The translations under genes were made by a program, and so were the position numbers. DNA of 47,659 nucleotides, filler included, from Jimgerdemannia flammicorona (Eukaryota), in the NCBI GenBank assembly GCA_003990765.1. It is 2 parts of 2 records of this genome, joined end to end, with 100 filler letters (N's around TTAATTAATTAA, not from the genome) between each part and the next. Parts side by side here need not be neighbours in the genome. Positions count along the whole stretch, not along the records: positions 23,882 to 47,659 come from RBNJ01001067.1; 1 more part is not named here. One strand, 5' to 3'. Of this stretch, positions 24,048-47,659 are shown in pieces (positions within the stretch are counted from its first letter, which is position 1; every line of letters begins with the position of its first letter). The notes beneath the pieces are model-generated. The model saw nothing but the letters and a program-made list of their open reading frames with translations. It ran no database searches and was not told the DNA's origin.

Positions 24048-24332
24048 GTCACTCAGACTCCTTCCTTTATTAATACACCTGTCTATCCTCTATATAATAT
24101 ACTGTACCCACTCCTATCTAATCCTCCTAGGGGGTCTTTCCTCCTCTTACTCTCTCTTAATGAAAGACCACTTTGTTATTTATCATTACCACTCACCCAC
24201 CACTCAATTCACAGATCTCTTCTACTAGATGGTGATGTTGCCTACTCTAGAGACCCCAACCAATCCACCACCCTGCCAGCAAATCACCCATCAACCTCTT
24301 CCATCTTAATAATTTCTTCTATATACCTATCC
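24013..24332 (-). mobile_element. 3' end of older 5'-truncated LINE copy E (continues at 30245-30610)
   Basis: A poly(T) from 24013 followed by ATAGTCACTCAGAC is the reverse complement of the LINE 3' end. It joins 30260 onward when LINE B is removed. Confidence 0.75.
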
Positions 24333-27300
24333 TTTTTTTTTTTTATTTTTTATTTTTATAGTCACTCAGACTTTTCCCTTTATTAAAATACCATCTATCA
24401 TCTAAATAATATACAATGCCCAACCCTATCCAATCCCCCTAGGGGGGCCCCCTCCTCCTATCTCCACTTGATGAAAGATTACTTTGTCTAACACCATCTC
24501 TACCTGCCCATCACTCTGTCTGTAGATTCTCTCTACCAGGCGACAACGTATATCACCCTGGGGACCCTAACCCACCCACCACCCAGTCAGCAGATCCTCC
24601 ATCAACCCCTCCCATCTTAACAACTTCTTCTGTAAACCTATCTACTGCCCCTTCTTGAAGACAAAGAGCCAATATCTAGCCAGCCCTACCCACACTGCTA
24701 AGACTCACTCTATAGTGAGCCAACCATTGCCCACCCCACCCACAAGCCAAGATTCCAAATTCTTCCAGTAATCTCTCTCTCCATCCGGCCTCCTCTCCAC
24801 TCCCAGCTGCTCCCCTACTGCTATCCAAAAGTCCCCCAGAACCTCACACTCTCTCAGTCAATATTCAGATATTTGTACAAATTTCCCAACTTTCTCTACA
24901 TTATAATACTCCTCACAATCTAAATGGTCACCCTCTATAAGATGCCCAGTACAGAAATTCAACATGATATTCCTCCTCAGCATCTACCACCATACTACCC
25001 AGAACTTAGGAGGAAGCCACTGCTATACCTCAGCACTCCATGACCAGACTCCTACTCAGTCTCACTCCTTGCCAATTCTTACAGTCTGTCAACTACTTGG
25101 CCAAAGATCCTGACCAAGGCCCTGCTGACACTTCACTCCATCACCAATATCAAACTCAGCAAGTGGAACACCCCCCAAAAGGAGTCTGTTCCATTGCTAC
25201 ATAGCTGAACCCCCCTGTACCCCCCCCTCATTGCCTCGCCAGTGTAGTCCTATCCTGTGTGTACCATCCACCACCCTCCACCAGAAGTCCTTATGCCATA
25301 GCTGTTGCTCCCAGTCAGGCCCACCAGAGAGAGCAAATCTCCTGAGGACCCCTGAGGGGAGAACCTCATCTCCCACACCTTCTGCAGTAGCAGCACCCAC
25401 TCTCCTCCCTGCAGTTCAACAGCCCTTTTCAACCACCAAGCTTGCAGACAGTACAGCCACTTAGGGAAATCCACAAGGTCTAGTCCTCCCCTAACCACTG
25501 ATATTGCAAGAGTATCCCAACTGATCTGGGACCTCCTCCCTGCTCAAATCTAATCTTGAGCCAATTTTGTCAGTCTCTTCACCATTCAAGCTGGGAAGTC
25601 TAAATGATAGGCCACATACCATAGCTTGGGGAACTAATAAACATTCAGAAATGACACCCACTCTGCCAGGGAGATGTGGTGACCCCCCCAACCCCTAAGG
25701 GCCTCCCCCCAAATGGCCACTCTCCTCTCCCACCACACTCATAGCAATATAGATCTATATAGAAAGAAATATGCCCAAGTACCACACCACCTCTCCCATG
25801 GAGACAATTGTTCCAATGACATTCCCTCCCATCAGCCCATTCCCTAACACCATTATCTCATACTTATACTAGTTGAGTTTCATCCCAGAGTGTGCCTCAT
25901 ACCATTCCACTATCTCCTTGAGTGCCTCAATGTCCTCCACTGATCCAAGCCCAACCACTATATCATCTGCAAAAGCCCCCACCTTCCACACCACACTATA
26001 TACAGAGAGCCCTACCACCCTCTGATATATCCTATCCATCAAAGGTTCCAAAGAAAGGGCATAAAGGATAGAGGACAGTGGGTCTCTCTGAGGAACTCCT
26101 CTTCCCAAGGGAAATGCCAGACCCCAGTGACCATTACATGACAGCACTGCCCTACTGCCCTCCAACAAATTCAGCATAGAAGTCCAAAACCTTGGGGGAA
26201 TACCAATTCTATCCAACACCTTGCCTAGACATACCCACTGAACATGGTCATAGGCCTTCTCCTGGTCCAAAAAGACCAGTCTACCATCTAGTTTACAAGC
26301 CTGGGACCCCTCAATAATGCCATACACCTAGGCAGTCCCATCTCTAATAAGTCTGCCTCCTACAAAGCTATGCTGCTCCTCACCCAGAACCTGTTGGGCA
26401 ACCCTCTATAACCTTACAACAATCACCTTAGTCACCATCTTCCTGTCTATGTCCAGAAGCATGATTGGTCTCCAGTTCTTCCAGTCCTCCCTTCTTCCCT
26501 TATTCTTGTACAATAAGGTCACCAGCCCCAAGTCCTGCTCACCAACTCACTTGCTATTCAGAAGAACATGGTCACAGAGGGCAGCCATCTCTCTTAATAC
26601 TCCAGGAACCTTCACCATCTTCTTCCAGAAGTCCCAAGGTAACCCATCCTCTCCTGGCACTATCCTCAGTTTAGTTGCTACAAGAACTCTCTGGATCTCC
26701 TCCTCTTGGACTGGTAAGATCAAATCACCCAGTCTGTCTACTTGCAGTGGCTCCCACTCCTCCAGTGTATCTTCAATTACCTCCTCATCTGCACCCCCTT
26801 CCTCCTCACTCCACAGACCCCTCCAATTTTCCTTTAGTGCTCCCAAGATCTGTTATATGCTATACACTATATCTCCCTCAGCATCCAAGATCCCATTCCA
26901 TCAGTGGTGCACCCTCCTAGCTTAGAGAAGCCTTGACAGATACCTAGTGGGCCACTCCCCTTTCTCTAGCCTCTGCCACTGTAGCCTGGCTGCCATACCT
27001 TTCATATGAATCTCCTTCTCTTCTCATAATATTTGTTGCAGCTCCACCACCTCCAACTTTGCTCACTCCAACCTCCAATCCTCCACCCCTTCCAAATAAA
27101 GCAACTTGGCCCACTCTATCTGCAATCTAATCAGCCTATTAGAAGCATACCATATATACTTCCTTCTCAGCCTCCCAGCCTCCCTACTAGCTTCTCCCCA
27201 ATAAACCCTTATAGTCTCCTTCAACCTCATCTACTGGGCCTCTACAGTTAATCCCTCCTGTGTCTAGGTAGCGATCTTCACTTGGACATCCTCCATCCAT

Positions 27301-30244
27301 AGGTCCCACAACCCCTTCTTGGCCAGCAGGAAGGAGTTAAGGTGCCAATATCCAGGTCCATCTCCACTCCCCCCAAACTGTCCCTGCCCCAATAGCCCCT
27401 AGTAATCAGACCAAGAACACTACTCCATCTCCAGAGTTCTTCAAACATCAGCACCCCAACATTCAGCCATCAGAATCCAGTCAATCCTTATACTCAGTCC
27501 ATTTACCCAATGTGTATAGACCCTCCTGTCACCCCATTGTGTTCTGCCCATATCTCCTAAGGAGCTAAGGTTCTCCACTTCCTCCCACTTATCTAGCCCA
27601 CTACTCCTCCCACCTGCACTTCTTCCTCCATCAGTTCTATTCAGCTGTGGATCCCTCACCATATTAAAGTCACCTCTCAGAATATTGACACCTTCCTCCA
27701 AGAAGACATCCTCCTCCAGCAGATCCCTGATCTACTCAATCTGCTCACCCCTAACTGCAGGATAGTAGCAGGAGCCAATCCTAACTGATTCCCACCCAGG
27801 TTGGTGCCATTCTCCCCAGACCAAACAGTCTCCCCAGTTCTGAATTCTGCTCAAGTCCCCTCTCCCCTTCCTCACCAGAATTACCACTTTGCTATTCCAA
27901 GCAGTAGCTTCTCCCCATTCTCTAGTTCACTCCACTTGATCTTCCTCATCCTCACACTATACATCCTGTAGTAAAAAGATAACAGCCTCCAATCTCTTAA
28001 GCTAAGTAAAAATGTTCCTATGTCACTCTGATCCCCATAGCCCATTCACATTCAGAGAAAAAATACTAGTTATACTATTCATAAGGAATAATGTTGTTTA
28101 TTGATCATGCCCTCTACAGATCTGCATTCAGCTCCTCCTGTACCAAGTCTAAGTCATGTTCTGCAGCCAGTGCCTTCTCCTCAGTTGCCTACATCTCCAA
28201 CCCAGCCAGAAGTTCCACCATCACCCCATCCTCCTTTTCCTCGAAGTCCTCCTGGTATTCCAAGCATACCTCCTGCCAGAGTTGCAACCCATAATGCTCT
28301 GCCCAATAATAGACAGCCCTCTCACCAGCAATGATCACCAACTCAGCCTCTCTCACCTCATCTACCACATATCTCTCCTTCTCCTTGAAAATCACAAGTA
28401 TCTCCACCTTCAGTGCCTCCACTACCCCATCTCCATGCAGAATCTGTACCTAGTGCTCCTCCAGCATCACACACAGGTCAACTTCTCCCAACTCCTCAGC
28501 TGCGAGGTTATCCATCACCTTGCTCATCCACAGCAAGTTTCCCACCTCTCTCCCTCCAGGAGTTCCTGGCTGCCCTACATCCAGCATTATGATATCTGCT
28601 CCCATATTGGCAGCCTCCTCCCACTCCTTCTCTGGGATATCCACCAGCTCATCCTCACCAACTGCCACCACCTGGCCTCCATTCACCACATCCGGGACCC
28701 TAAAGCAAAACTTGCTGGGCCCCCTGCATCAGCATATCCTCCACTGCTCCTCTCCTCTCAACTGGGTCCCTCCTGATAAGTGGGGGGGAGGTGTCATCCA
28801 ACTCCTGCTCCCAAACTTCGAAGGTACTGTCAGTATATGGGTCCTTGCCCAGCATCTTCCCAGCCCTTTCCTCATTTGCCTCCACCTCCTCTCCTCCTTT
28901 GTTAGCCCAGATACTAGCTTTGATACCTCCAGACTCTTCAGCTCCAACCAACTTCTTCTTCACCCCTCCTATCATACTTGCCAACAGCTCCCTCTACCTC
29001 TTGTGTCCCTGGACCTGCTCCCACTGCTTCCTGTCAGTTCGAATATGCTTCCCATCCACAACCTCCAGATGTATCGACTCCTCATATAGCTTCCAGGCTT
29101 TCACCCTTCTCTCTACAGTACCACTCAACTTCTCCAGCACCTCCAACAGGTTCTCCTCCTCCTCTTCACTCCCTTTCACCCTTGACACCTTACAGATGAA
29201 GACCTCCCACATTAGCACCAAGGGCCAGTCACTTAGCTTCCCTGTGGCCTCCTTCTCTGCCAGCCAAATCCTGACATCAACATCACCTATTCTGAATGTT
29301 GTCTCCTCCTATATCTGAAAGCTAATATCCACCACATCACCATACTCTACCATTACCTCCTCCACCCTCCTTCTAGTCTCCTTCTTAGTCACCATGGGCA
29401 CCCCCCTTACCAGAAGCTACACTACTCTGGGGTCTCATCTTAAGCACCACACCATAGGGACCACTATCTCCCCAACTACTACTCCAGTCTTCAGGGTCTC
29501 ATCTAGTGGGCCCATCTCCTCAAAGCCTACCTCAATCCCCTCCAGACCCTTCAAGAACTTCATCAAGGCCACTCCAGCCATCTGCTTCAAAATAAGCCCC
29601 AGGACCATCCTTGCCATCACTGCTAAGCCCTGGAAGCACAAGGTAGCTGTGAACTCTGAGATCAACTTCTTGAGCAACAGGGCTACTACCAGTCCTGTTA
29701 TACCATCTGCCAGATCCCCTTTCCATATCAGGAATCTCTGCCCCCCCTGGCCATCAGCTATTATATTTCTTTTTTTTTCTGATTTGCCATCATACTACCA
29801 TCAGCAGTCCTGCCACTATCCCCAGCAGCTACTCCACTTCCTCCACCTCCCACCAGTGAAGGTCCAGCTCCCCCAGTATCTCCAACCTTCTGCTTCTCCT
29901 TCCCTTCTGCCTGTCTACTGCGGGCTCCCATCAGCCAGCCCCCAGTCCTCAGCATATCCATAAAGCTCCTTCTCTACCACCCTCTGGCCCCCCCACCAGT
30001 ACTGCCTCCACTGTCCAAGCTGTCCTGCCTACTTGAGCTATTGAAAGACCCCATCTCCAGCCCATACCCTCTCCTGACATGCTGCCAGTCGAAGGCCCCA
30101 GGTCTGCCTGACCTAGTATGCATATTAGCTTACTTGTTGGTTGATATTGTCTTAATATCTTTCTCCAATAAATGAATCAAAAGTATGTTGTAAAAGTGTG
30201 TATAACGTGAGTTGTAGTGGAGAAAGATATCCCAGAGACCTCTG
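24333..30244 (-). mobile_element. LINE copy B, full-length, decayed
   Basis: Poly(T) at 24333. RT motifs LVFLDQEKAYD, GVPQRDPLS and AFADD (25869-26327). APE motifs GDFN and RIDWIL (27441-27701). ORF1 remnants 28114-30150. Degenerate 15-bp TSD TCTATATACCTATCC (24318-24332) / TCTGTATACCCATCT (30245-30259). Confidence 0.92.
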
Positions 30245-30610
30245 TCTGTATACCCATCTATTACTTCTCCTTAAAAACAAAGAGTCAATGTCCAGTTAGC
30301 CCTACTTATACCATCAAAACCCATTCTACAGTGAGCTATCCATTACTCACACTACTCACTAACCTAGATTTCAAATCCTCCCAGCAACCTCTCTCTCTAT
30401 CCAGCCTCCTTTTTACACTTAGCTAATCTCTACCACTATCTAAAAGTCCCCTAGAACCTCACACTCTTTCAGCCAATATTCTGGCATCTGCACAAATCCC
30501 TCTATATGTCCGATATTATAACACTCCTCACAATCTAGTCATCTACTATCCACCAGATATCCAGCATAGAAATTCAACATGATATTTCTCTGCAGCATCT
30601 ACTACCATAT
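30245..30610 (-). mobile_element. Upstream part of truncated LINE copy E
   Basis: Collinear with the 3' region of LINE B (~24630-24990), including the C-terminal CEECYN..EYWLKEC segment. Confidence 0.75.
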
Positions 30611-31117
30611 CACTCTCTTCCTTTTGCTATCATTAATAAAATATTATTACAGTATATTATGAGCTATATAGGAAGTTGACTGATCTTGGACATCAAGTAT
30701 CAGTATAGATTATCTGTAGGTTATTAGTATCTATAATAGAGCTCTCTGAGCTTTGATAAGCTTTTCAGTGAGTATAGTTCTGATATAGGTGACTGTTTTT
30801 AAGTATAATTAAGATGAGAGAAGAGATGATTATTACAGATAAGAGAAAGAGTAATAATGGTGAATTAGTTGAGTGTTAGACTAGAGACAATCATCAGGAT
30901 TATAGTAAGTATTATCTTATAGAGCCTTTTGATTGACTGGCAAATGATAGAGTAGTATAGTAACTGATATTCTAGCTATATTCAACTGAAACTAAGAGCT
31001 AATATAGTAATACAATTAAAGCCTATAGACTTAAGAAGTAGGATCTTTCTCATTTGGTAGTATTTAACTAGAACTGAGAGCTGATATAGTAATATGATTG
31101 AGGCCTATAGACTCTAG

Positions 31118-34100
31118 TATTTATGACTCTTGATTCCACAATATTCAGATTATATAACTCTCTGGCAATACTTATAACATAGTTTTAGAGTAAAGATATT
31201 AGTATTATAGTGACCAATGAGTATTCTGAGATACATACTGGGTAGAGTGGCCCTGATATATTTGACTGGCAGTAGTAGAGAGGGGTCCTGGCTTGGGGAG
31301 AAGTATGAGGGACCTAATGATGAGAGGATGTAGTAGGAGAGGAGGCAGTGCTAGAGATTAGGAGATTAGAAGAGCAAGCTTCATGAAGAAGGTGAAGGGG
31401 GGACAGCAGAGAGCTGGACTGGAAAGTTGGCTGAGGAGAGGCAAGGTAATGACAAAGGCTACAGGGCAGAGACTTCAAGAGGAGCTCTTCTGGAGAGCCA
31501 GAGTAGTGGGGCTGGTGGTGTAATAGCTGAGGATATAACTGCTGATGGGAGCATGATGGGCAATCTGGAAAAAAATCTAGATAGAACTACTGATGATAGA
31601 CTGAGCTGTGGGAAGGGCATGAGGCCTAGTGATCTGGCTGATAGTATAATAGATCTGGTAGTGGTACCATTACTCAAGAAGTTGATCTCAGAATTCACAG
31701 TCACCCTATACTTCTGAGGCTTAGCAGTGATAGCAAAAATAGTCCTGGGGCTGATTGTGAAGTAGTAGAAGGTATAGTATCTATTAAGTTTCTAAAGGGC
31801 CTAGAAGGGATAAAGGTGGACTTTAAGGAGACAGAGCCACTAGAGGAGGTGCTGAAGATTGGGTTGATGGTTGGAGAGATGTGTATTCTAATAGCATGGT
31901 ACTTGAGATGGGATCCCAGGATAGTGCAGCTCCTGGTAAAGAGTATGCCTATGGTGATTGTTATGGAGATGAGGAGGAGAGTTGAGGAGATTATGGCTGA
32001 GTACAGAGAGATAATTGATATAGAGTTTAGAATCTGAGAAGGGACCACCTTCTGGACAGAGAATATTGATGTCCAGATTCGACTGGCAGAGAGAAAGGCT
32101 ACTGGTAAAGCACATAATTGATCTTCAGTGATGTTGTGGGGAGCCTTTGTATATAAGGTGACAAGGGTTAAAGAGAAGGAGCTGAGTGGTACAGTAGAGC
32201 AAAGAGCAAAGACTTAAAAGATATATACATATGAAGTTGATACACTTGGAGATTATTGATGAGAGGTGAGTCTGTATTAACAAGGGACTGTGAGAGAGAA
32301 CCCAAGGCCACAGAAGGCAGAGAGAGTTGCTGGTGAGTTTAGAGATGAAGAAGACAAGGGCTGCTAATAGCAGTGAGGAGGCTGGAGGAGCTTTGATAAG
32401 TGTCTGGACTAGGAGATAAGGAGAGAATGTAGAGGTGGGTCTGGAGAAGACCAGAGAGGTGCTAAGTAAGAACTCATATGAAAATAGTAAATTCAAAGTC
32501 TGGGAGTAGTCTCCTACTCCCACTTCTCTTATTAGGTGAGAACTAGCTGTGAGGGGCTGAGCAGCAGAGAATGTGCCCATGTATAGTATCCAGCAGGTGC
32601 ACTTTGGAGTTTCTGAGGTGGTGAAAGAAGGACAAGTGGTGGCAGTTGGTGAGGAGAAACTAGTGGGTGTCCCAGAGAAGAGGTGGAATGAGGCTATAAG
32701 TATGGGAGAGAATATCTCAATACTGAATGGAGGACAGCCTATGACCCCTGGGGGAAAGAAAGTGGGAAATCTACTGTAGATGTACCAGATAATAAATAAT
32801 CTTGTAGCTGAGGAACTAGGAGAAGTAGACCTAAGAGTAATGAGTGATGAGTACTGGGTAAGGATCTTATATAGCAATGGAGTGGTGTAGATATTAAGGA
32901 TAGAGGTACTGGCAGTTTTTCTAGAGAAGAAAGAGTATGAGGTAAACAAGGAGAGAGAGGCTGAGCTGGTAGTTATTGCTGGTGAGCAGGCCACCTACTG
33001 CTGGAAAAAGCATTATAGTTTGCAGCTCTGGCAGAAGGTCTGTCTGGAGTATCATGAGGATTTTGAGAAAAAGAAGGATGGGGAAATAGCTGAGCTACTG
33101 GAGGGGTTAGAGACTAAGAGAGCTGAAGAGGAGGTAGTATCTACTGAACACAACCTGGACTTGGCAAAAGAGGTGAGAGATATGGAGCAGTAGAGGATGT
33201 GTTTACAATTTCACAATATTCCTTTAAATAGTACAACTAATATTTTTTCTCTCAATGTGAATGAGTTATGGAGTTCATCTTGATATCAGAACATTTTTAC
33301 TTGGCTAAAGAGATTGGAGGCCAATCTCTTTCTTTTGTAAGATATCAGATGTAAGAATGATTTGGATAGACTGGAGTGGACTAAGGAATAGAGAGGAGAG
33401 ACTATATGAAAAAGCAAGGTGGGGATTCTGGTCTAGAGGAGCAGAGGGGAGATATGGGAGATGAGGAGTTGGAAAGATAAGCTGGTTTGGAGAGAGTGGA
33501 TTTGAGCAGGTTGGGAGCCAATTACAGTGGGGTCTTACTATTGTCCTACTGTATGGGGGGAGTGTATGGACTAGGTGAAGGGTCTTTAGGAGAGTGGGGT
33601 CCTAACAGAGACTGGAGTGGATATACTCAGCAGAGACTTCAATATGGTCTGAGATGTATTGGTAGATAGAACTGATAGAGGGTGGGGGGCTGAGGGTAAG
33701 AGTAGAGGTCTGGTGGTATAGGAGGAAGTAGAGAGACTGAGTGTACTGGTAGATACTGGCAGGAGATTTCAGGGTAATAGGAGAGTATACATACAATGGG
33801 CCAGGGGTCTGGAGATGAGAATTGACTGGATTTTGACTGCAGACTGTTGGAAATTAGATATCTGGAAATTACTGAAGGTTGAATGATATGTATCTGTGGT
33901 CTAATAATTGAGAGTTATTGGGACAGAGACATTTTGGAAGAAGTAGAAATAGGCCTGGATATTGGTATCTGAATTCCTCTTTATTAGATGATAAGGAACT
34001 GTGGGATACATAGGTTCCTCTGATGAAGAAGATCTAGGAGATGAGATCCTCACTAAGAGGCTCTACAGGTAATCTACTATTCTTGATCAGGCTTCAGAAC

Positions 34101-34952
34101 AATGATCACATATGGTATAAGAGATTCTAATAGAAGTTGTAGATGGGGTACACTACATTAGAATTTACTAGCAGAGAGATAAAGGGGAGATACCTTGGGG
34201 CTCTGTGATGTGGAGATAAGACCAAATACTATTAAGTGGTACCTCATTACTTAATTTTGATATTAGTGATGGGGTAGAGTATTAAAGAGAGTTAGGACAG
34301 GATCTGTGGTCTGGTGGATAACAGCTGATAGATATTAGAGAGAAGTGGAATTGGAATGGGGTTTGGGCCTGAAGTGCTGAGATCAGGCAATAGTTGCCAC
34401 TAAAGTACTAGATAGTCTAGTAGTACATATTATAGAGAAATATCATGCTCAACTTCTACTCAGGCCATCTAGTCAAGAGGGGAAGTTTTGACTATAAGGA
34501 GTACTATAATGTAGGGAAAGAAGGGGGTTTTGTATAGATGTCTGAATATTGGCTGAGAGAGTATAAAATGCTTGGTGACTTCTGGTTAGAGGTTGGATAT
34601 TGATTGAGTATAGTACATAGAGAAGGTGATATAAGAGGCTGATGGAAGGATTTGCAGGATAAATTAGTAGAGAAGATTGGGTCAGAGTAACTCACTTTGG
34701 ATTGGGTTTTAGCTATATAGATGGGATTAGTGGGTCACTGGTTGTTTGTTTTTAAGGATGAGAGGAGACTAGGATTGAGAGCATAGTTGCTGAGATGAGA
34801 AGAGCTGATGGAGAATATCTTAATAGGCTAGTGGCTTGGTTGGGGCCTATAGAGTGATCAGAGGTATAGTTTGGTCAAGAAAGTCTATAGGCAGAGTAGC
34901 AGAAGAGTTGGTATAGTAGATGAAAGGGTGTCTTTCAAGTATGAAAAGATAG
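31118..34952 (+). mobile_element. LINE copy C, old and internally deleted (RT missing); its 3' tip lies at 47557-47659
   Basis: ORF1 and APE remnants are collinear with copy D up to ~34010, then jump to the equivalent of D ~45530. Interrupted by the Ty3 element at 34953. The 5' boundary is approximate. Confidence 0.85.
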
Positions 34953-35410
34953 TGTAACATAGCGGATGCTTACTCTTGAAAGTACATCGGATTTCTGTAT
35001 CTTGAAAACTTGACTGTTCTGACTCTTGCAGAGTCTCTTGAAGTTGTAGGGGAGAGTGGGTGAGTTCGAAGTATATCTGCCTGCAGGCTTACTAGTTTCT
35101 TTGCTATCTCTTTGCTTTGAACTATTTCGATCTGAGGTTTATTCACTCGAAGATACTGGGTTATTTATACAAGTTTGCTAGCTCTGAGAGAGTGGCTAAG
35201 TAATAAATGAGTCATTTGGACTTTGTCAAAACATTTAGACAATGTCTAAATGCTATACTAAATCAGGGTGTTCGATTTGGATAATGTCTAAGAATTTAGA
35301 CAATGTCAAAATTGAGGACTGCTAACTATAAGGCTATACTTCTTTGGGACTGGGTACAATCAAGTGTCTATTCCCTATTTCCTTCTTCCAAATTTGGTTG
35401 TACCATCACA
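34953..35410 (-). repeat. 3' LTR of the Ty3 element
   Basis: TGTAAC...ATCACA. Direct repeat of 47100-47556. Minus-strand TATAAATA (35162-35169) and AATAAA (35138-35143). Purine tract AGGAGGAAG is adjacent at 35412-35420. Confidence 0.93.
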
Positions 35411-35489
35411 ACTTCCTCCTGAATAGATGGTCTTATCCCTGAGGCATCTATTCAAACTCCCAGGCTTCAACCATCTATATGGTCTTGTA

Positions 35490-35885
35490 CTATGCAATTT
35501 GCTGCATGACTGTTTCCCAATGATGTCTTCTCACTTTCTTGAAGTCAGTGGGGGTTACTTCTCTCAGGTGGTCTATCACTGGTTCATCTTCTCGGAAAAA
35601 CTTGTGGATCCTTTTGGCAATAGTGATCTGTGAGTGGGAGAGTTGACACTTGGCAATCCAGTCCTCTTTGGTCTTTGCTGGATCCTGATTGAGCACCTGT
35701 CTAAGCTTGAAGTACTCTTGGAATTCTGCCCGATATTGATAGGCTCTAAAGTGTGAGATCTGAGAGAGATGAGTCTGCACAATAATCTGAATATCCTCAT
35801 AGTATGGCTCTATGGTCGGAGGCTCGGTGGTGTGCCATTGTCTTTTGATGGCTCTTTGGGCAGCACTAGTGATCTTGAGTGCCAT
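35490..35885 (-). CDS. Uncharacterised domain, in frame with the integrase C-terminus
   Basis: 131-aa track ORF (MALKITSAAQ...METVMQQIA region). The upstream codons read TTIH*N*LKKYLASNKSTA-M with no stop between the integrase GPY/F tail and this ATG. Confidence 0.75.
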   Translation of the reverse strand: MALKITSAAQRAIKRQWHTTEPPTIEPYYEDIQIIVQTHLSQISHFRAYQYRAEFQEYFKLRQVLNQDPAKTKEDWIAKCQLSHSQITIAKRIHKFFREDEPVIDHLREVTPTDFKKVRRHHWETVMQQIA

Positions 35886-37090
35886 CGCAGTACTTTTGTT
35901 ACTGGCCAGATATTTCTTGAGTCAGTTTCAGTGAATGGTGGTGGGGATTATTGTGCCTGAGAGTTTTCGTAGCCAAAAGGTGGTCTCTTTTATATCTTAC
36001 ACAAGGTAAGGTTCTTCCTACTTGGGCTCCAGTTTTCGTGACCATGAAGCTTCTACCATATTCCGATACACCAGGACCTTGTCTCCTATCTTGATAATCT
36101 CCAAGGGCTTGTGGTCTTTTCCACATTCCTCTGTTATAGTGTCTGCACCTTAGTTATGTAATCCTCAGCCTTCTTCCTGATTTGGTGTAGTCTCCATATT
36201 TCTATGTCCACATGTTTCCATACAGCATCTCTATTGGATGATAGGGTTCCTTGAGAACATTCTTCTCCAAACAGCATTTCTCAAGGAGTAAAGTGGGTGC
36301 TTTGTGATCAGATATCCCGGAGAGCAGATAATGCTATTGGCAGATAGTAATCCCAGTTCTTGTAGTTATCACAGATCTTGGCAATAACATTCTTGAGGGT
36401 TTTGTTGGTCCTTTCTACTTATCTGTTTCCTTGGAGGTGATAGGCTGTGGTCTGAATGTGCTAGATCTTGTACTTCTTGTAGAGAACCTCAAAGAGCTAG
36501 TTCATGAATTCTCTTCCTCTATCTGTAGTTACTTGTGTTGGGGTCTTGAACCGGCAGATAATTTCCTTGTGGAAGAAATCAGCAATTGACTGTGCATTGG
36601 CTTCCTTGAGGGGTCCTGCTTCTATCCACTTCATAAAAAGGTCTACGATGACAATGATGTATCAGTTACCAGTCAGGGTCAAGGGTAGAGGGCCGATTAC
36701 ATCTATTGCTATATGGGCAAATGATACTGGTTCTATGTGTGCTGATCCTGGGGCTTAATTCCGTTGGTCTTGTTTCTGTTTCTGGCATTTATCACATATC
36801 TTGACAAATTGTCTGATATCTTCCTCCATCCCTGGTCACCATATTATTCTTCTTGCCTTGTCATATATATTTGTTCCTCCTAGATGGCCAAGTTTATGTA
36901 CTGATTTCATTACTTGCTCCTTCTTGTGTTCTGGTATGACCAGTAGTTTTCCTTTCTTTAGTATTTCTCCATCAGTTTCGAATTGTTTCCATGTTCTGTT
37001 GATAATCGTTTATGTCCATTTTTCCAGATGTTGGGGCATTTTTCGCTGTCCCAGGTATATGATAATTCCATAGTAGAGCTCCTTATTCAT
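35886..37090 (-). pseudogene. Integrase, decayed
   Basis: HHCC (HKLGHLG...CDKCQK), core AHIAIDVIGPLP, TDRGREF, TAYHLQGNR*VERTNKTL, and GPY/F-type KIGDKVLVYR..KLEPK*EEPYLV. Confidence 0.88.
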
Positions 37091-37115
37091 GATTGATTTG
37101 TTGGTTGGAGGTAGT

Positions 37116-38420
37116 TCAAGGTATCCATGAGAGAGCATCTGCATTGAAATTTGTTCTTCCAGGGCAGTGTATGATGGTTACATCATATGCTTGTAACTTC
37201 ATTATCCATCTGGCATAGATTCCCTTGGGTTGTCCAGTTGTCAGTAGCCAGATGAGAGCTGAGTGGTCCATCTGGATGGTGAAGTGTCTTCCAGCCAGAT
37301 AGTAGTAGAACTTTTCCACAGCCCAGATAACTGCAAGACATTCCAACTTATAGGACTCATATTCTTTTTCAGCCTCTTGGGTTCTGCGGCTAAGATATGC
37401 AATGACATATTCTTTCTTGTCTTCTTTTTGAGCTAGGACTGCTCCTAGTCCCTGTATACTTGCATCCGTCTGAAGGATAAATTCTTGGGTCCAATTGGAT
37501 CATCTGAGGATGGGTGCCTGAGTTAGTCTGATCTTGAGTTCATCAAATGCTTTTTGTTGTCTGCCAGTCTACTGGAACTTGGTATCCTTCTTGTTGAGTT
37601 CATAGATTGGACCTGTGATGTTGGAGAATCCTCTAATGAATCTGCGATAGTAGGAGGCAAGTCCCATGAAGGCTTGGGCTTCTGTGACAGTAGTGGGCCT
37701 TGGGTATGCTGCTACTGCTTGTATCTTGAGGGGGTCCATGTGTGTTCCATCTCGATTGATAATATGGCCAAGATAGGAGATCTCGATTTCTGCAAACTTG
37801 CACTTCTTGGGTTTGATATAAAGGTCATGTTGTCTTAGTCTCTCCATTATCTGCTGTATGTGCTGCAGATGTTCCTCAGATGTCTTGCTGTAGATGATTA
37901 CATCATCGACATAGACCATCATCCATCTTCCCATGTCATAGCGGAAGATTTTGTTCATCATTCACTGAAAGCTTACTGGTGCATTGCACATTCCAAATGG
38001 CATTCATAGGTAGATGTAGGTTCCATCTGGTGTGATGAAGGCTGACTTTTCACTTGCCATCTCTGTGAGTCCGATTTGGTGAAATCCTGAGTATAAGTCC
38101 AGGGTGCTGTAGTACTCTGCTTCATCTCCCAGTGTTATAAGAATGTCACTGATGAGTGGCAGTGGTTTGTGATCCTTCTTGGTAACTGCATTGAGCTTTC
38201 TGTAGTCAACACAGAGCCTTGGGGCAAATTCTCCAAGTTTGCTTCCTTTTTTCAGGGCTAGTACAACTGGTGAAGACCAAGGGCTACTGGCTTCTTTGAT
38301 GATGCCAGCTTCTTCCATCTGCTTGATTTCTTCTCTGAGCCATTCTCGGTAGGCTGGCGGGACAGATCTTGCCTTCTGATAAATTGGTTCAGTGTCTCCA
38401 GTATCTATCTCATGATAGTA
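37116..38420 (-). pseudogene. Reverse transcriptase and RNase H, decayed
   Basis: SSPWSSPVVL, RLCVDYRKLN, LDLYSGFHQI, MPFGMCNAP, VYVDDVIIYS, FILQTDAS, ECLAVIWAV and NADALS. Confidence 0.95.
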
Positions 38421-38603
38421 GTATGGGGTCTTTCCCTTGATATCCTTGAAATCCGTGGCAAGAACATCCTCGAATTTGTGGAGTATCTTCTTGAGTTCCT
38501 CTTTGAGTGGGAATTCATCTCCAATGGTGTAACTGTGCTTGCTTGTGTTTTCCTCCTTCTTATGCTCGAGTTTGGTGATCTTGGTGCTGGTATATACTCC
38601 TCT

Positions 38604-39020
38604 TCCTGTGGATCCAAATCCTTTCTTTCCTCTTTTCGTTTTCTCCAGATTCTTGACTTCTATGATCCTTGGCTGTATGATTGAGAAGATCAACATCTGT
38701 ACCAATTGGTCCTTCTTCTTGACTGGGAATGGAATTGTAGGATTGTGGTTCCTAGCAATGAGTAGAATTTCTCCAGTATAGTCTGAATCAATGACTTCTC
38801 CTTCGATTGTAATTTCGCTTCTAGCCAGGCTGCTTCTTGTCTTGAGAATCCCAATATGATCCTTTGGGATGGTCATCTCTAGTCCAGTTGTGAGTAGGGT
38901 GGTTGTCTGGAGTTCGAGTACAGTTTCTTCTACTGTAGCAATGTCCATTCTGGCTGCGTTTTCTGACTTGTATTCTGGCAAGACTGTATCAGGGTGGATC
39001 TTTCAAATCTTGACCTTGAT
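38604..39020 (-). CDS. dUTPase domain within pol
   Basis: The five trimeric dUTPase motifs are recognisable in order: AARMDI, RSSLA, VIDSDYTGEI, DQLVQML and RGKKGFGSTG. It is in frame with RT in ORF 38004-38981. Confidence 0.92.
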
Positions 39021-39369
39021 TTCTTCTTCATCATCACTGTCCTCCAGGAGGGCTGGTGGTTCGTTATCTTCCTCCTTCTCTTCTTCTCTGATCTGTTTTT
39101 CGAGAGCTTTCTGTCTTCTTTCCTGGTAGATCTTCTTGGTTCTGATGGTGCACTAGTAGCAATCATTGACGTGCTCCATACAGTACATCTTGATTCCATG
39201 AGAACAGACTCCTTGTGGGACATAGCCTTCTGTGATCTTCTTGCACCATTCTTCTTCACTCATCTATCCAACTTTCTTCTTCTTTGGAGTAGTCACTATA
39301 TAGACTTCCTCTTGCTCACTCTCCTCTTCCTCTATATCAGGTAGGACTCCTTTATTGACATTGATGGGA

Positions 39370-39740
39370 ATTCATATCTTCTGTCCCTGGTAGGTGATCT
39401 GCATCTTCTGAGCATTGAGATCGATTATTGCCTTGGCTTTGTGAAGCCATTGATTGCCAATGAGGATGTTATACATAGTTGGTGGCATTGGTTACGATTA
39501 TATCTACTGGGATTGTTGCTCCTCCGATCTTGATGGGAACATCTTGGATCTTTCCTAGAGGTGTGGCTCTTGTGCCATCAGCTGTGATGAATACTAGCTT
39601 AGTTGCTTCTTCCACATCCCAACCTAGGTGGTCTGCTGCCTTCTTACTGAGGAGACATTCTCCTGCTCCCGTATCAATGATGGCTTCAAAGGTTCTATCT
39701 TCGATTTGGCATGTTGCATAAGCAGAGGTTTTGCGATTAT
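39370..39740 (-). pseudogene. Retroviral-type aspartic protease
   Basis: EAIIDTGAGECLLS in ORF 39469-39834; ILIGNQWLHKAKAIIDL follows after a frameshift. Confidence 0.9.
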
Positions 39741-40787
39741 CCTTACTTTCTTCTCCTGAGTTCTCTTGAACATTGTTGGCCTCAGTTATCTTCCATCCTT
39801 GTTCCTTAGTTGTTTCGGCAAGTCCAAACCTCATTTGCTGTCTGAATGTTAGGATTTCTGTAAGCTGACCAAAGGTTGCATTGACCTTTTGTTGACTGAG
39901 ATCCTTGAAGATATCATACTTGAAGGTCTTGGTCTTGCGAAGCTTCTTTTCTTTTTCTCCTTCACTGGCTGGAGTGGTTCCTCAGATGATATCTTGAACT
40001 GCTTGCTTCAGCTTGATATCTTGGTCCATCTCTTCGGCTTGGCTTTCTGTGTCAGTTTCCATCTACTTTTCTACTGGGTTCTTCTTGGGTCTTTCTGGCA
40101 GTCTCTTGTAGGGTTCTTTGCAAGCATCCTTCTTGGTGGTCTGAGCAGAATAGGCCTCCCATTCCTCTTTATCAGATTCTTCAATTTCTTCAAAGGTGAT
40201 TGTATTGGCCTGCTCCTTGTTTTGTATGGTGTTGCTTGGTTGAGCCTTGTGTTTGGTTTCACTCATACATTCATAGGAGTAGTGGCCTTCTTCTCCGCAG
40301 CTGTAGCAGGTACCTTTCTTCTTATCTGAGGTGGCGGCAAACTTCTGAACAGGGTGGCGATCTCTTCCTCAGATTTCCTTTACCACATCTCCCAGGTGGG
40401 CAGTCATTTCAGCAAACCTTTTGGTGAGTTCCTCCATAGGGTCACTGTTCTTTTGCTGCTCTGTAGCTTTTGGCTGGGGTGTGTTTTGATTGATCATTGT
40501 GGTGGGAATCATACTGGTTGCCTTGGGTGCCTCAATTCTGACTCCTGTAACTCTCTCCATTGTATGGTCTTGTGGGTATCCAGTATTGCTGAGCATAGGT
40601 GACCTTCTGTGGCAGATCCAGAATCACTGATAATGAGTGGATGGCCATGGCTATTTCTGGATGGACTCCTTTCATGAAGGTTGCTTTGGCCAACCTCTCC
40701 ATCTGCGACTCTTTCCAGTACCATTCAGGTTACACAACCTTTGGAAGGTACTTTCAACATCATTTTCGGCAAAAAGAGACTAACAAC

Positions 40788-42811
40788 ATGGCAACCGACA
40801 GGCAACCTGAGGTGCGTACTGGGCAGGGCAGCCCAAGCACTTTCAACTGGCAGCAGGTGGGGAGGGGTCCAGACCTGGGGGGAGGTATGAGGGGCCTGCT
40901 GGCGGGTGGACGTGGAAGGAGTGGAGGAGGTGGTGGAGGATCAGGATCTGGGAGGGCAAGCTTCACAGAGATGGTGAAGGAGAGACAGCAGGCGTTGGGG
41001 CTGGAGAGCTGGCTAAGGAAGGGCAAGAAGACTGAGAAGGCAATAGTGCCGGGGGGTGCAGCCCTTGGAAGGGAGGGCGGTAGAGCTGCGGGAGTAGTGG
41101 CTGGAGAGGTGTGACTGCTGATGGTGTTGGGACTGTCGATCTGGAAAAAAATCCAGATGTGACAGCTGATGGCGAGGCTGAGCGGCTGAGGCTTAGAAGA
41201 TAAGGAGACTTAACAGATGGTGTAACAGGTCTGGTGGTGGCCCCGTTACTCAAGAAATCGATTTCGGCATTCGCGGTCACACTGTGCTTCTGGAGCCTAG
41301 TGGTGACAGCAAAAATAGTGCTGGGGCTCATCGCTAAGCAGGTGGCAGGTGCAGCATCTGTGAAGTTTTTGAAGGGACTGGAAGGAGTGGAGGTGGATTT
41401 TGAGGAGGCGGCACCGCTGGAGGAGGCGCTGAAGGTTGGATTGGTGGTTGGGGAGATGTATGTTCCAATGGCGCGGTGCCTGAAGTGGGACCCCAGGGTG
41501 GTCCAACTACTGGTAAAAGGAGTGCCAATGGTAACAGTGATGGAGACAAGGAAGAGAGTTGAGGATTTCATGGCAGAATATGGCAAGGTAGTGGATATCG
41601 GGTTCAGGGTCTGAGAAGGGACCTTGCTCAGGACTGGTGACATGGATGTGAGGATTTGGCTGGCTGGGAAAGAAGCCACTGGGAAGGCAAGGGATTGGCC
41701 TTCGGCGATGGTCTGGGGAGCAATCCTGTGTAAGGTGACAAGGGTGAAGGGGAGTGAGGAGGAGGAGGAGGATTTACTGGAAGCACTAGAAGAGCTGGGG
41801 GGTGCTGTGGAGAGGTGAGCGAAGGCTTGGGAGGCTTTTGAAGAGGCGACACACTTGGAGGTGGTGGATGGAAAGCAGATTCGAGTGACCAAGGAGCAGT
41901 GGAAAAGGGCTCAGGGGCATAAGAGGCAGAAGGAGTTGCTGGCCAAGCTGGATAGCAGACCACTGGGGGAGGCAAGCAAGGTGAAGGGCACAGGGGGAGC
42001 TGAAGTGAGTATCTGGGCCAGCGAGGGGGAGGAGAAGGACAAGAAGGAGGTGGGGGAGGACAAGAAGAAGGCTGGGAAGGACCCATATGCAGATGGTATA
42101 CTGGAGGTATGGGAGGAGGACTGGGTAGGCTCCCCTACCCCTACCCCTCTCATCAGGCATGGCCCGGCTTCCCAGGATAGGGTGGTGGAAGATGTGCCAA
42201 TGCAGGGGGCCCAGAGGGTGCAATTCAGAGTTCCAGAGGTGGCATATGGGGGACAGGTGGTGGCGGCTGGCGAGGAGGAACTGGTGGATATCCCGGAAGT
42301 ATAGGATGAGTCTGCAAGTGCTGGAGCTGACACCATAATGTTGGATAGAGGGAGGCCAGTGACTTCGAGGGGGAAAGAGGTGGGGAACTTGCTTTGGATG
42401 TGCCGGATGATGAATAACCTGGCAGCAGAAGAGTTGGGGGAAGTGGACTTGCGAGTGATGAGTGATGAGCATTGGGTGGAAATACTGCAGGGGGATGGTG
42501 TAATGAAGGCATTGAAGGCGGAAATTCTTGTGGTGTACCTGGAGGAGGAAGGGTATGAGGTGGATAAGGAGAGGGAGGAGGAGATGGTGGTTGTTGCTGG
42601 AGAAAGGACTGAATACTGCTGGAACAGGCGACATGGACTACAGCTCTGGCAGGAAGTGTGTATCAAATACCGAGAGGAGTTTGAGGAGAAGGCCGATGGA
42701 GAGATGAATGAGCTGCTGGCTGGATTGGAGGCTCAGAGGGCAGAAGAGGAGGAGGTGGCTGCAGAACGTAATTTGGACAAGGCACAGGAGAAGATGAGCA
42801 TAGAGCAGTAG
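40788..42811 (+). pseudogene. LINE D ORF1
   Basis: ATG 40788 (MATDRQPEV...), Gly-rich N-terminus, RRM-like middle (VEVDFEE...QLLVKGVP...EYGKVVDI...RTGD) and acidic C-terminus. It carries a few transition stops and one frameshift. Confidence 0.8.
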
Positions 42812-42844
42812 AGGCTGATTGACGACATCACATATATCATCAAA

Positions 42845-45800
42845 ATGAACAGTACAACCAACATTTTCTCTTTGAACGTGAATGGGTTACGGAGTGCTTC
42901 TTGACATAGGAACATTTTTACTTGGATGAAGGGATTGGAGGCCGATCTCTTCCTCTTGCAGGATGTCCAGTGTGAAGATGACTCTGATAGATTAGAATGG
43001 ACAAAGGAATGGGGAGGAGTGGTGATTTGGAAGAGCAAGGTTGGAATTTTGGTTAGGAAAGGTAGAGGGGAGATACAGAATGTGCGGTACTGGGGAGAGA
43101 GACTGGTCTGGGGAGAGTGGATTCAGGCAGGCTGGGAGCCAGTTATGGTTGGCTCCTGCTACTGCTCTATGGTACGGGGTGAGAGGGTAGATTGGGTGAA
43201 AGGCTTACAGGAGAGTGGAGTACTTGCAGAGGCTGGGGTGGATGTGCTTGGGGGAGATTTCAATATGGTTAGGGATATACTGCTGGATAGAACAGATGGA
43301 GGATGAGGTGCTGAGAGCAGGAGTAGAGGGCTGGTGGCATGGGAGGAAGTAGAAAGGCTAAGTACGCTATTGGATGCTGGAAGGGAGTGCTGGGGGAGTA
43401 GGAGGGTCTATACACATTGGGCAGGAGGTCTGGGGACTAGAATCGATTGGATTTTGACAGCCTGCTGCTGGGGACTAGATGTTTGGAAATTATTGGAGGT
43501 GGAATGGTGTCCATGGTCAGATCACTGGGGGCTTTTGGGACAGGGGTGCTTTGGGGGAAGTGGGGATGGGTCTGGACATTGGTGCCTCAATTCCTCTTTG
43601 TTAGATGACAAGACCCAGTGGGATAAGTGGACTAAAGACATTCAACTGAGGGTGGAGAACTGGAAGCAGGAAGGGGCTGTAGTTGGGACTCAATGGATGA
43701 GGATGAAGGAAATGGCCAGGATTTACTGGAAGGAGGCTGGTAAGGAGGCTGGGAAGCAGTGAAAACAAAGAGTGTACTGGGCCTCTGCTAGATTGATGAG
43801 GCTCCTGGAGGAGTGGGCAAGACTGACGATGTTGGAGGGAGTAGAAGATTGGAGATTAATGAGGGTGAAAATAGAGGTTGGGGAACTTCAACAGGTGCTG
43901 TGGGAGGAGGAAGAGGCAAGGGTACAGAGCTTGGCAGCACGTCTTTGCTGGCAAGATCTGGAGGAAGGAGAGAGGCCTTCCAAGCTTCTTACAAGGGCCC
44001 TTAGGGCGAGGCGGGTCCAGCAACAGTGGGAAGGGGTATTGGACTCTGATGGTGTACTGGTGCATGGTGTACAGGACATTCTTGGATCGCTGAAGGAGAG
44101 ATGGAGTGGATTGTGGAGTGAGGAGGAGGGTGGGGTAGATGTCGCTACAATTGAATGAATATTGGAGGATTGGCACCCACCACAAGTCAAAGGGCTAGGG
44201 GACCTGGTGATGCCTGTACAGGAGGATGAGATCCACCAGGTTCTTGCTACAACAATGTCTGGTATGGTACCTGGGGAGGATGGTCTGCCCTGGGACTTTT
44301 GGAAGTGAATGGTTGAAGTCCCAGGGGTGATGGAAGAGATGACAGTGTTGTGTGACCTTATTCTACAGACAGGAAGGTGGGTGGGGGAGCAGGACCTTGG
44401 GCTGGTGACACTGCTCTACAAAAACAAAGGAAGGCAGGAGAATTGGAAGAACTGGTGGCCGATAATGCTGCTTGATATGGACAGAAAGTTGGTAACTAAG
44501 GTGGTGGTGGCGAGACTACAGAAGATGGCCCAGCAAGTCGTGGGTGTTGAGCAGAGGGGATTTATGGGTGGTCGGCTCATCAGGGATGGCACTGCCTGGG
44601 TGCATGGCATTATTGAAGGGGTGAGGGCCTGTGGACTGGATGGGCATCTAGTTTTCTTGGACCAGGAGAAGGCATATGACCGGGTGCGAAGAGTCTGGCT
44701 AGAGAAAGTTTTGGATAGAATGGGGGTACCGCATCAATTCTGGTCAACAATGGTCAGCCTACTGGAAGGGAGTAGGGCTGCACTCACGTGTAATAGACAT
44801 AGAGGGATAGCATTTCTCTTGGGAAGGGGGGTGCCCCAGGGGGATCCATTGTCCCCCATTTTGTATGCTCTTTCCCTGGAACCACTTATGGACCGAATTA
44901 GGCAGAGAATAGTGGGGCTCTCTGTCTTTGGCATAGGATGGAAGGTTGGGGCCTTTGCTGATGACATGGTGGTGGGTTTGGGTTTGATTGCTGATGTTGA
45001 GGAGCTCAAGAGGACTGTGGAGTAGTATGAGGAGTATTCTGGAGCTAAGCTAAATTGGCATAAGTGTGAGACGATAGTGCTCGGTAACGGCCTGGTGGGA
45101 GGGGAAGTTATAGGAACAATTGTCCCCACCAGTGAAGCAGTGTGATACTTAGGTATCTACTTGTCAGTCTATGGATCAGTTCTGCCCAAGCTTTGGTAGG
45201 AGCAGAGGATTGGAATCTGGGAGGAGGCTCTGCGGAGTTAGGGGGGAAGGCATTTTTCTCTGGCAGGGTGGGTCTTGATTTTGAATGTCTACTGGCTGCC
45301 AAAGTTGTGGTACCTGGCATATCATCTGGACTTTCCAGCCTGGGTAGTGAAGAGATTGATGAAGTTGGTAAAGGGATGGATTTGGGCTGGCAGGCAGAGT
45401 CAAATTAGTTGGGAGACCTTGTCCCTACTAGTGGCAAGAGGCAGTCTTGGGCTGGTTGACTTCCCAAAATGGTTACACTGCTTGAGAGCATGGTGGCTGA
45501 AGAGGGCAGTGGAGTTGAGAGGAGGTGGATGGGTTCCTCTGTTACAGAAGTTATGGGAGAGGTGGGTATTGCCAAGGGGCTCAACTGGTGATCTCCTCTC
45601 CTTAGTTGGGCTTCAGAACACTGCCCAACTATGATATAAAGGATTTTGGTGGGGGATTGCAGAAGGAGTGCACCGCATTGGTATTCATTGGCAGGGGAAT
45701 GAAGGTGAGGAGGATTGGGACCTGGCGATGTGGAGATGGGACCATATACTGCTAGATGGTGCTCCTTTAGTTGAGTTCGACATTGGTGATAGAATGGAAT

Positions 45801-46502
45801 GCCAAAGGAGACCAGGCCAGGATCTGTGGCCTAGCAGTTGGCAAGGAGTTAGAATTGGCGAAGAGTGGAACTGGCATAGTGTTTGGACCTGGAGTGCTGC
45901 AGTGAGAGCATAGCTACTACCAAAGTACTGGGTGGTCTGGTGGCACATGCTGTGGAGGAACATTATGCTCAATTTTCACTCAGGGCACCTTGTTGTAGGG
46001 GGTTGCTTCAACTGTGAGGAGTGCCATAATGTAGGACAGGAGGGGGGGTTACATATAGATACCAGAACATTGGCTAGGAGAGTGTGAGGTGTTGGGGGAC
46101 TTTTGGCAGACAATTGGGGATTACTTAGGGGTATGGGGTAGGAGTGATGAAGTACGGGGGCGATGGGAGGACTTGAGAGATAGATTGGTAGGGGGAATAG
46201 AGAAGGAGTGGCTTACTTTAGGTTGGGCTTTGGCTATTTGGGTGGGGCTGGCCAGTTATTGGCTATTTGTTTTTGAGAATGGGAGGAGACAGAGCTTGGG
46301 GGACCAGCTGCTGTGATGGCATAGGCTTATGGAAGATATCTTAACAGGCTGGTGGCTGGGTTGGGGGATGTGGAGTGGTCGGAGGTACTGCTTGGTGGAG
46401 AAAATCTGTGGGCAAAGTGGGAAGAGAGTGGGGGTAGTTGGTGAAAGGGTGATTTTCATTTGTGAGGAAGTAGAGAGGGGCCCCCCTGTAGGGATTGGAT
46501 AG
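42845..46502 (+). pseudogene. LINE D ORF2 (AP endonuclease, RT, C-terminal Cys/His motif)
   Basis: MNSTTNIFSLNVNGL, GGDFN, RIDWIL, SDH, WCLNSSLL, EGERPSK, PGEDGLP, LDQEKAYDRV, GVPQGDPLSPILY, AFADD and CEECHN..EHWLGEC. Confidence 0.93.
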
Positions 46503-47078
46503 TGGGTCGGAATGATGTATATTTATTCATAGACTGGTAATAAAGGCAGAGTCCAAGTGATTATAAAAAAAAAAAAAAAAAAAAAAAATAAAGGTTGCTT
46601 CGGCTACTTGATCTCAGATAGCAGCAGTATAATCTACAAGGATTATCTGATATTGAATTCTAGTATAGAATGTGTTTGGATCCTTGCTCATTCCTTGGTA
46701 TATTGTGTTGAGCTGATCTTTTAGGGCTTGCTTGATCTCATCTGTGTAATATGTATTTCAGAGCCAGGTCTTCTGTACTGTCAGTATGGCATCGGCATCA
46801 TTTCCTGCATAGGTTGCACCTGTGAATGCTGCTCTGGCAGAGCCTCGTAGGCTGAAGGACATGAGGGCTACTTGCTGTGCTACTGTCAGAGTCCTTACAG
46901 CAGCATACTGCTCGAAATCGTCAATGAAGGTGATAATTGATTCATCTGAGGTATATCCATGGAATACTGGTGGTCTCATATCCATCTTGTCTAGGTATTG
47001 GGGCTCAGTTTGTATGGTTGTTCAGATAGTGGTGGTTGTTCATTGTTCAGCTTGAAAGTGAGGAATTCGTCTTGAATC

Positions 47079-47096
47079 ACCAGCCAATAAGCACCA
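47079..47096 (-). promoter_or_regulatory. Primer-binding site of the Ty3 element
   Basis: TGGTGCTTATTGGCTGG begins 3 nt inside the 5' LTR boundary and is complementary to a tRNA ending ..GCACCA. The tRNA identity was not assigned. Confidence 0.7.
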
Positions 47097-47099
47097 AGT

Positions 47100-47556
47100 T
47101 ATAACATAGCAGATGCTTACTTTTGAAAGTACATCAGATTTCTGTATCTTGAAAACTTGACCATTCTGACTCTCGCAGAGCCTCTTGAAGTTGTAGGGGA
47201 GGGTGGGTGAGTTTGAAGTATATCTGCCCGCAGGCTTACTAGTTTCTTTGCTATCTCTTTGCTTTAAACTATTTCGATCTGAGGTTTATTCACTCGAAGA
47301 TACTGGGTTATTTATACAAGTTTGCTAGCTATGAGAGGTGGCTAAGTAATAAATGAGTCATTTGAACTTTATCGAAACATTTGGACAATATCTAAATGCT
47401 ATACTAAATCGGGGTGTTCGATTTGGATAATGTCTAAGAATTTAGACAATGTCAAAATCGAGGACTGCTAACTATAAGGCTATACTTCTTTGGGACTGGG
47501 TGTGATCAAGTATCTATTCCCTATTTCCTTCTTCCAAATTTGGCTGTACTGTCACA
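47100..47556 (-). repeat. 5' LTR of the Ty3 element
   Basis: TATAAC (mutated TGTAAC)...GTCACA; direct repeat of 34953-35410. Confidence 0.93.
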
Positions 47557-47659
47557 ATAGGGGGGGGGGCCCTCTAGGAGAATTGGATAGTAGGAGGAGA
47601 TACTGTAACTATATCTATAAACTGATAATAAATGACAAAATCTAAGTAACTATAAAAAA
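47557..47659 (+). mobile_element. 3' tip of LINE copy C
   Basis: GGGGC CCTCTAGG..ATTGGATAG..AATAAA..TCTAAGTAACTATAAAAAA matches the 3' ends of copies A and D and continues from 34952. Confidence 0.85.

Follow-up and report, generated by a model that had tools for sequence, protein, structure and literature searches.

The open frame that follows the integrase (IN) in the retroelement described here, and that looks like a domain fused to the IN C-terminus, very probably owes this look to a single lost base: the window (the whole 47,659-nucleotide stretch of Jimgerdemannia flammicorona DNA that was analyzed, filler included) seems to carry a dead Ty3/gypsy copy from a family in which this frame, hereafter ORF3, is separate from IN and lies in the +1 frame relative to it.

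The element itself is a dead, 12.6-kb Ty3/gypsy LTR retrotransposon copy on the minus strand, with a second repeat nested in its gag (Table 1), and it shows the LTRs, target-site duplication, primer-binding site, polypurine tract and protease (PR)–reverse transcriptase (RT)–RNase H–IN order of the Ty3/gypsy (Metaviridae) elements, the two LTRs being identical at 430 of the 457 aligned positions. The family to which it belongs would encode gag-PR-dUTPase-RT-RNase H, next IN and, as a last, third gene, ORF3, and this three-frame layout is an unusually arranged one. The type of repeat nested in gag recurs in the window at 1446-11032 and 24330-34008 (70-76% identity; an RVT_1 match at 25869-26327 on the minus strand), and is marked by long tracts that are open in multiple frames with a Pro/Ser-rich reading. 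Other observations made in the window are an inverted repeat (4563-6625 and 6966-9032) with arms of about 2 kb that are 89% identical and spaced by 340 bp, a region at 21352-22435 in which none of the three minus-strand frames meets a stop for over 300 codons, with internal direct repeats 72-76% identical and no Pfam match, and two runs of 44 N's each (23782-23825 and 23838-23881) with 12 bases between them.

Table 1. Features of the Ty3/gypsy copy and its ORF3 remnant, in window coordinates (columns: feature, position, strand, basis or remark).
Target-site duplication CTAT, 4 bp	34949-34952 and 47557-47560	-	sequence
3' LTR (TG...CA)	34953-35410	-	LTR comparison
Polypurine tract aggaggaag, just ahead of the 3' LTR	35412-35420	-	sequence
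ORF3 remnant (ancestrally 153 codons)	35448-35909	-	homologues, pN/pS; start lost, two premature stops
Site where relatives carry one extra base; ORF3 start codon there, +1 relative to IN	35908/35909	-	indel table, L001
Two TGA stops inside the last conserved IN motif (H-stop-N-stop-LKKY)	35922-35924 and 35928-35930	-	sequence; CGA in L001
Integrase (IN) frame: H2C2 zinc finger, core, GPY/F-like end	35910-37090	-	Pfam and L001
RNase H domain	37116-37499	-	RT_RNaseH, E 3.4e-35
Reverse transcriptase	37569-38250	-	RVT_1, two pieces
dUTPase domain, between protease and RT	about 38600-39002	-	PF00692, E 6e-22
Aspartic protease	39469-39981	-	Pfam
gag C-terminal part with CCHC zinc knuckle	40066-40368	-	Pfam
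Nested RT-bearing repeat, unrelated, splitting gag, about 6 kb	40700-46750 (limits approximate)	+	RVT_1 44309-45025
gag N-terminal part	46761-47021	-	aligns to the L001 gag start
5' LTR	47100-47556	-	then primer-binding-site-like TGGTGC...

Read on the minus strand, the window IN frame runs ...GTIIPTTIH-stop-N-stop-LKKYLASNKSTAMALK..., so the letters given in the original prediction, with TGA at both stops, are confirmed, as is its statement that no stop separates LKKY from the ORF: past the TGA codons the frame stays open over 35490-35921 (143 codons) and is continuous with the IN end. The fusion of the two that had been proposed on this ground does not, however, hold in the relatives. Contigs from four public sequencing runs were aligned to the window at a likeness of at least 80%, and, going by the differences listed, they are one base longer than the window at 35908/35909 in all four: the extra base is seen in 71.7 of 85.5 in depth (four contigs) in run X1, in 2.87 of 2.87 (one contig) in X2 and in 32 of 32 (four contigs) in X3, while in X4, where the indel table has it in 0 of 9.53, the contig stops at this very place and ends in a 12-letter loose end consisting of one extra base and the next 11 letters of the window. 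The runs in which pieces of the stretch occur are soil/root metagenomes and one coded organism, with shares of 0.18 or less, and no RNA run is among those listed.

As regards DNA spanning the IN/ORF3 junction, these short contigs enter through their indel table, and the sole relative aligned across it as a longer sequence is L001, a near-intact relative on a JGI metagenome contig of 6479 nt that is about 76% identical to the window in nucleotide sequence along 3.7 kb. It came from a second metagenome locus scan (the first had given nothing), together with L002, which was dropped as a relative, being a high-GC bacterial contig that had matched via one short peptide; scans of viral contigs and of genome contigs gave no further loci. 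The L001 IN frame reads ...TIHRNRLKRYHGKSTEYSHSPQDH-stop and has CGA at both of the codons that are TGA in the window, just as had been guessed. IN occupies frame 1 (5077-5838) and ORF3 frame 2, the ATG of the latter (at 5795, in the context ACCATGG, with A at -3 and G at +4) overlapping the IN end by 44 nt; the IN frame closes 14 further codons on, and those codons are unrelated to ORF3, which comprises 153 codons (5795-6256) and stops (6254-6256) about 40 nt ahead of the LTR (at about 6298). The L001 dUTPase (PF00692, E 2.7e-28) falls at residues 648-775 of a 1281-aa ORF. As its IN carries one in-frame stop, L001 cannot be taken as proven to be active. In its LTR end (6395-6479), a 19-nt unit occurs four or more times in tandem, where the window LTR instead has a short imperfect internal repeat.

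Because the relatives are one base longer at this site and L001 has the two genes in different frames, the continuity between IN and ORF3 is to be regarded as a private one-base loss in the window copy, and this loss, judging by the alignments, is what joins the two frames and at the same time removes the ORF3 start codon, giving the false look of a fusion. The original prediction had itself named a conserved stop or frameshift past LKKY as what would refute it, and such a frameshift is what the relatives have: ORF3 is +1 in L001, the contigs are one base longer, and none of the 18 database relatives (see below) reaches IN.

These database relatives were gathered in steps, a HMMER search of 1.84 billion representative proteins giving three matches at E <= 0.001, all of them short metagenome ORFs, and the addition of cluster members and a profile search extending the set to 18 proteins (P0001-P0018). 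Thirteen of them start at MAN or MAT, four at Met33 and one at Met62, a start at MAN being partly built in, since the database proteins were delimited by gene callers, which require an ATG; in the four with Met33 as their start, the first ATG may be missing. No upstream extension into IN is found in any of the 18, and a search for longer proteins among 5.8 billion sequences returned no fused IN-ORF3 protein, which is weak evidence. The MAN/MAT methionine of the 13 aligns to the window L right after LKKY, 12 codons ahead of the ATG at 35885 from which a 131-aa ORF had been proposed to start; this ATG is private to the window, the relatives having T, I or V at the matching residue, and so it is not the ancestral start.

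The window has two premature TAG stops in ORF3 (35490-35492 and 35475-35477), both of which are CAG in L001, and, among the differences listed, the contigs of the relatives read G at 35492, which also makes the first TAG a former CAG. Four of the proteins (P0005, P0009, P0010 and P0014) continue for ten codons beyond the first of these stops to a C-terminal end in ...EAWEFE, and the stop that follows (35448-35450, 37 nt from the 3' LTR) is common to all five relatives that reach it, namely these four and L001. The suggestion that the frame had once run to the LTR is therefore right in that the later stops decayed from CAG, but the conserved stop ends the frame 37 nt before the LTR. ORF3 is intact, with 153 codons and the common end, in P0005, P0009, P0010 and L001, at pairwise identities of 72-80%. 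Being homologous to this conserved ORF, the open frame in the window is not open by chance. The IN stop, on the other hand, varies in position relative to a fixed ATG, lying 44 nt beyond it in L001 and a few codons beyond it in the window's subfamily. Taken together, the alignments show ORF3 to be a separate gene in the relatives, with a conserved stop and a conserved ATG of its own, the latter overlapping the IN end.

That this gene encodes a protein can be seen from the substitutions. In a codon-by-codon comparison of the window with L001 (Nei-Gojobori), pN is 0.213 and pS 0.797 in the frame of ORF3, versus 0.329 and 0.297 in the second and 0.357 and 0.244 in the third frame of the same stretch; the corresponding values are 0.087 and 0.493 for IN, 0.135 and 0.728 for RT-RNase H and 0.211 and 0.660 for the dUTPase, and pS is saturated, therefore no reliable dN/dS ratio can be derived from any of these figures. 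The frame-specific pattern nevertheless shows, at the level of sequence comparison, that ORF3 evolved as a protein under purifying selection, its protein changing faster than IN and at a rate about equal to that of the dUTPase.

The window copy of ORF3 is not unusually well kept. Against the L001 codons, stops have arisen at 2 of 153 positions in ORF3, 14 of 394 in IN, 5 of 406 in RT-RNase H and 4 of 476 in PR-dUTPase, and the window IN also has one 1-nt deletion. Eighteen of these 25 premature stops come from C-first codons (8 CGA, 1 CGC and 9 CAG/CAA) and three from TGG, the remaining four replacing AAA, AGA (twice) and TCC; the premature stops of the dead copy are mostly due to C-to-T changes in CGA, CAG or CAA codons or to changes of TGG. 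The window has a GC content of 42% and a CpG observed/expected ratio of 0.13 (0.22 in the element, 34955-47557), with TpG and CpA in excess, and this loss of CpG and the spectrum of the stops fit a decay that would have been driven by cytosine deamination.

The arrangement seen at the start of ORF3 is not confined to it, an ATG ahead of the preceding stop being present at both the RNase H/IN and the IN/ORF3 junctions. The frame comprising gag-PR-dUTPase-RT-RNase H ends in ...NHE-TAA (37083-37085), while the IN frame, which is +1 relative to it, begins with MNKELYY... at an ATG (37088-37090) lying 5 nt ahead of that TAA, and the layout of the L001 junction (4612-4619) is identical to that of the window (37083-37090). 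Among the matches listed, all 12 of the dUTPase-bearing pol relatives (42-52% identical) are without an integrase domain in their ORF, and the four that were inspected all end just after RNase H, P0020 doing so in ...YNHE.

The ORF3 product (153 aa, about 18 kDa, pI 6.2-8.8) is hydrophilic; it has no hydrophobic or membrane segment (the maximum 19-residue Kyte-Doolittle mean is 0.19) and no cysteine cluster. An Env-like protein was ruled out on account of this length, hydrophilicity and lack of a transmembrane segment, and an identity as a nucleocapsid-like basic protein was rejected as well. Domain searches were equally sparing with names. Pfam has no family for the window ORF3 (143 codons), and for all 17 of the relatives searched at E <= 10 it gave nothing above the cut-off and three weak, unrelated names; HTH_Tnp_Mu_2 (PF09039), which was matched by four near-identical members of the 17 at 12.3-14.8 bits (E 0.03-0.18, the gathering cut-off being 20.5), was judged to be noise. 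The Pfam Chromo domain is absent from the window ORF, the 17 relatives, the L001 IN end and the L001 ORF3. The sequence profile search of the PDB had asparaginase as its best match at E 0.16, a likeness taken as chance, and the ORF3 profile showed no likeness to the element's own gag-pol (probability 0.3%).

The check for a known fold that had been advised together with the original prediction gave a low-confidence helical model and no match: AlphaFold2, run on a 17-row ORF3 alignment, yields seven helices and helices only (mean pLDDT 52), so ORF3 is predicted to be all-helical, and a Foldseek search of the PDB with this model returned nothing at E <= 0.001. The ESM Atlas model of P0005 has a pLDDT of 0.42; by features, the Atlas offered unnamed or unrelated clusters only, and every structural row was below TM 0.5. 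A literature search by keyword, not by sequence, found no description of ORF3. As far as the searched databases show, the ORF3 sequence family is thus new and is without a detectable homologue outside the element family; the notion of a chromodomain-free, unrecognised module has in this respect been borne out, the module being a real protein-coding sequence without a Pfam match or recognisable family.

Two alternatives that would do away with a separate third gene can be weighed against these data. One is that IN genuinely extends in frame into ORF3 as its C-terminal domain, with only the two CGA-to-TGA changes interrupting it in this copy, a reading that the continuous frames of the window would suit; its probability is very remote, however, given the one-base frame difference in L001 and in the contigs of all four runs, the failure of all 18 relatives to reach upstream, and the L001 IN closing after 14 codons that have nothing to do with ORF3. 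The other, the probability of which is practically negligible, treats the open frame as a spacer without coding function that separates pol from the polypurine tract, its openness being due to chance or to conservation at the RNA or DNA level. The searches, from which family, fold and confident structure are all absent, would be expected to look as they do if this were so, yet a pN of 0.213 versus a pS of 0.797 in the ORF3 frame only, the 153-codon length and stop kept across copies 72-80% identical, and the saturated synonymous sites, which argue against constraint at the nucleotide level, all point the other way.

Once ORF3 is read as a gene of its own, +1 to IN, the matter becomes one of its expression. 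From the layout of the codons, we infer that IN and ORF3 would both be made from AUGs of their own: ORF3 would be translated on its own, either from a subgenomic mRNA or by ribosomes that terminate at the overlapping pol stop and then reinitiate (coupled termination-reinitiation), and IN would likewise be made from its own AUG by termination-reinitiation at the overlapping stop. A programmed +1 ribosomal frameshift within the short overlap, joining ORF3 to IN as a conditional C-terminal extension at the site that a chromodomain takes in chromoviruses and, likewise, IN to RT-RNase H, seems improbable, even though the +1 frame occurs twice (ORF3 versus IN and IN versus RT-RNase H), as +1 frameshifting would need. 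A TAA follows the overlap by no more than a few codons, both at the RNase H/IN junction and, for ORF3, in the window's subfamily, a slowly decoded stop being a known stimulator of +1 shifts, and if IN were made separately from Gag-Pol, it would have to enter the particle by some other route. Such a shift would not, however, need the conserved ATG with which each of the two downstream frames begins; the IN stop of the L001 subfamily is 44 nt downstream, which leaves no stop at the putative shift site; no known +1 heptamer common to L001 and the window could be made out here by eye; and the fused protein is absent among the 5.8 billion sequences mentioned above (again, weak evidence).

If ORF3 is, as preferred here, translated separately, it might serve as an accessory factor without enzymatic activity, acting in trans on the element's replication/integration complex via protein or nucleic-acid contacts, a proposal that is put forward tentatively and with considerable doubt; ORF3 would then resemble the retroviral accessory proteins, not an IN domain. 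A more ambitious version, in which IN and ORF3 are produced from overlapping +1 frames by recoding or stop-restart used twice and ORF3 is a new integration-targeting or host-interaction factor that replaces the missing chromodomain, whether it works with IN as a distinct subunit or is joined to it by frameshifting, must be considered quite improbable.

The position of ORF3, 3' of the IN GPY/F region, is indeed that of the chromovirus chromodomain, but ORF3 is outside the IN frame, is without a Chromo match and is predicted to be helical, whereas the chromodomain fold is a beta sheet with a helix. A closer parallel may be found among the additional ORFs of LTR elements. Going by the parts of these publications that were consulted, the additional ORFs that lie in sense orientation between pol and the 3' LTR have been reviewed for plants (PMC7264820), varied ORF3s have been described for bdelloid rotifers by a source that has ORF3s of LTR elements typically expressed from spliced messages (PMC5408684), and an "add. 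ORF" has been noted in fungal elements (PMC2864245). The ORF3 of the window family lies on the sense strand between pol and the 3' LTR, occurs in many copies and is constrained at the protein level, and it agrees with this aORF/ORF3 class, as portrayed in the same parts of those sources, in following pol in sense orientation ahead of the polypurine tract/3' LTR, in its presence in many copies and in the family specificity of its sequence. It is, on the other hand, short (153 aa), has no transmembrane, esterase, exonuclease or env-like features, and begins within the last IN codons, not past a spacer.

According to the consulted portions of PMC2864245 and PMC5408684, Ty3/gypsy elements with a dUTPase placed between PR and RT, as in the window family, occur in basidiomycetes, Tuber and bdelloids, and the bdelloid lineages also have varied ORF3s; the comparison with these elements was made by their descriptions, not by sequence. 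The Tuber element Tmt1 has a chromodomain, as stated in the part of PMC12581995 consulted, unlike the window family, which has none. Among the matches listed, the named pol relatives belong to animals and a green alga and show 34-42% identity, and the closest dUTPase-bearing ones are metagenome proteins (42-52% identical). By sequence and position, ORF3 is an orphan accessory ORF of a known kind in a dUTPase-bearing Ty3/gypsy family.

For the junctions, a possible analogy is offered by the UAAUG of hypovirus CHV1 (PMC2699510), the classic stop-restart case in a fungal virus: at both junctions of the element the downstream AUG likewise adjoins or just precedes the upstream stop. The likeness here is one of codon layout alone and would go no further than analogy, the IN stop of L001 lying 44 nt past the ORF3 AUG.

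ORF3 thus becomes one more of the unexplained extra ORFs that LTR elements continue to yield. With its three successive +1 frames and an ATG just ahead of each preceding stop, the layout of the element could at the same time be of interest for the study of recoding in retroelements, the placement of IN outside the main polyprotein frame being part of what makes this layout relevant to translational recoding.
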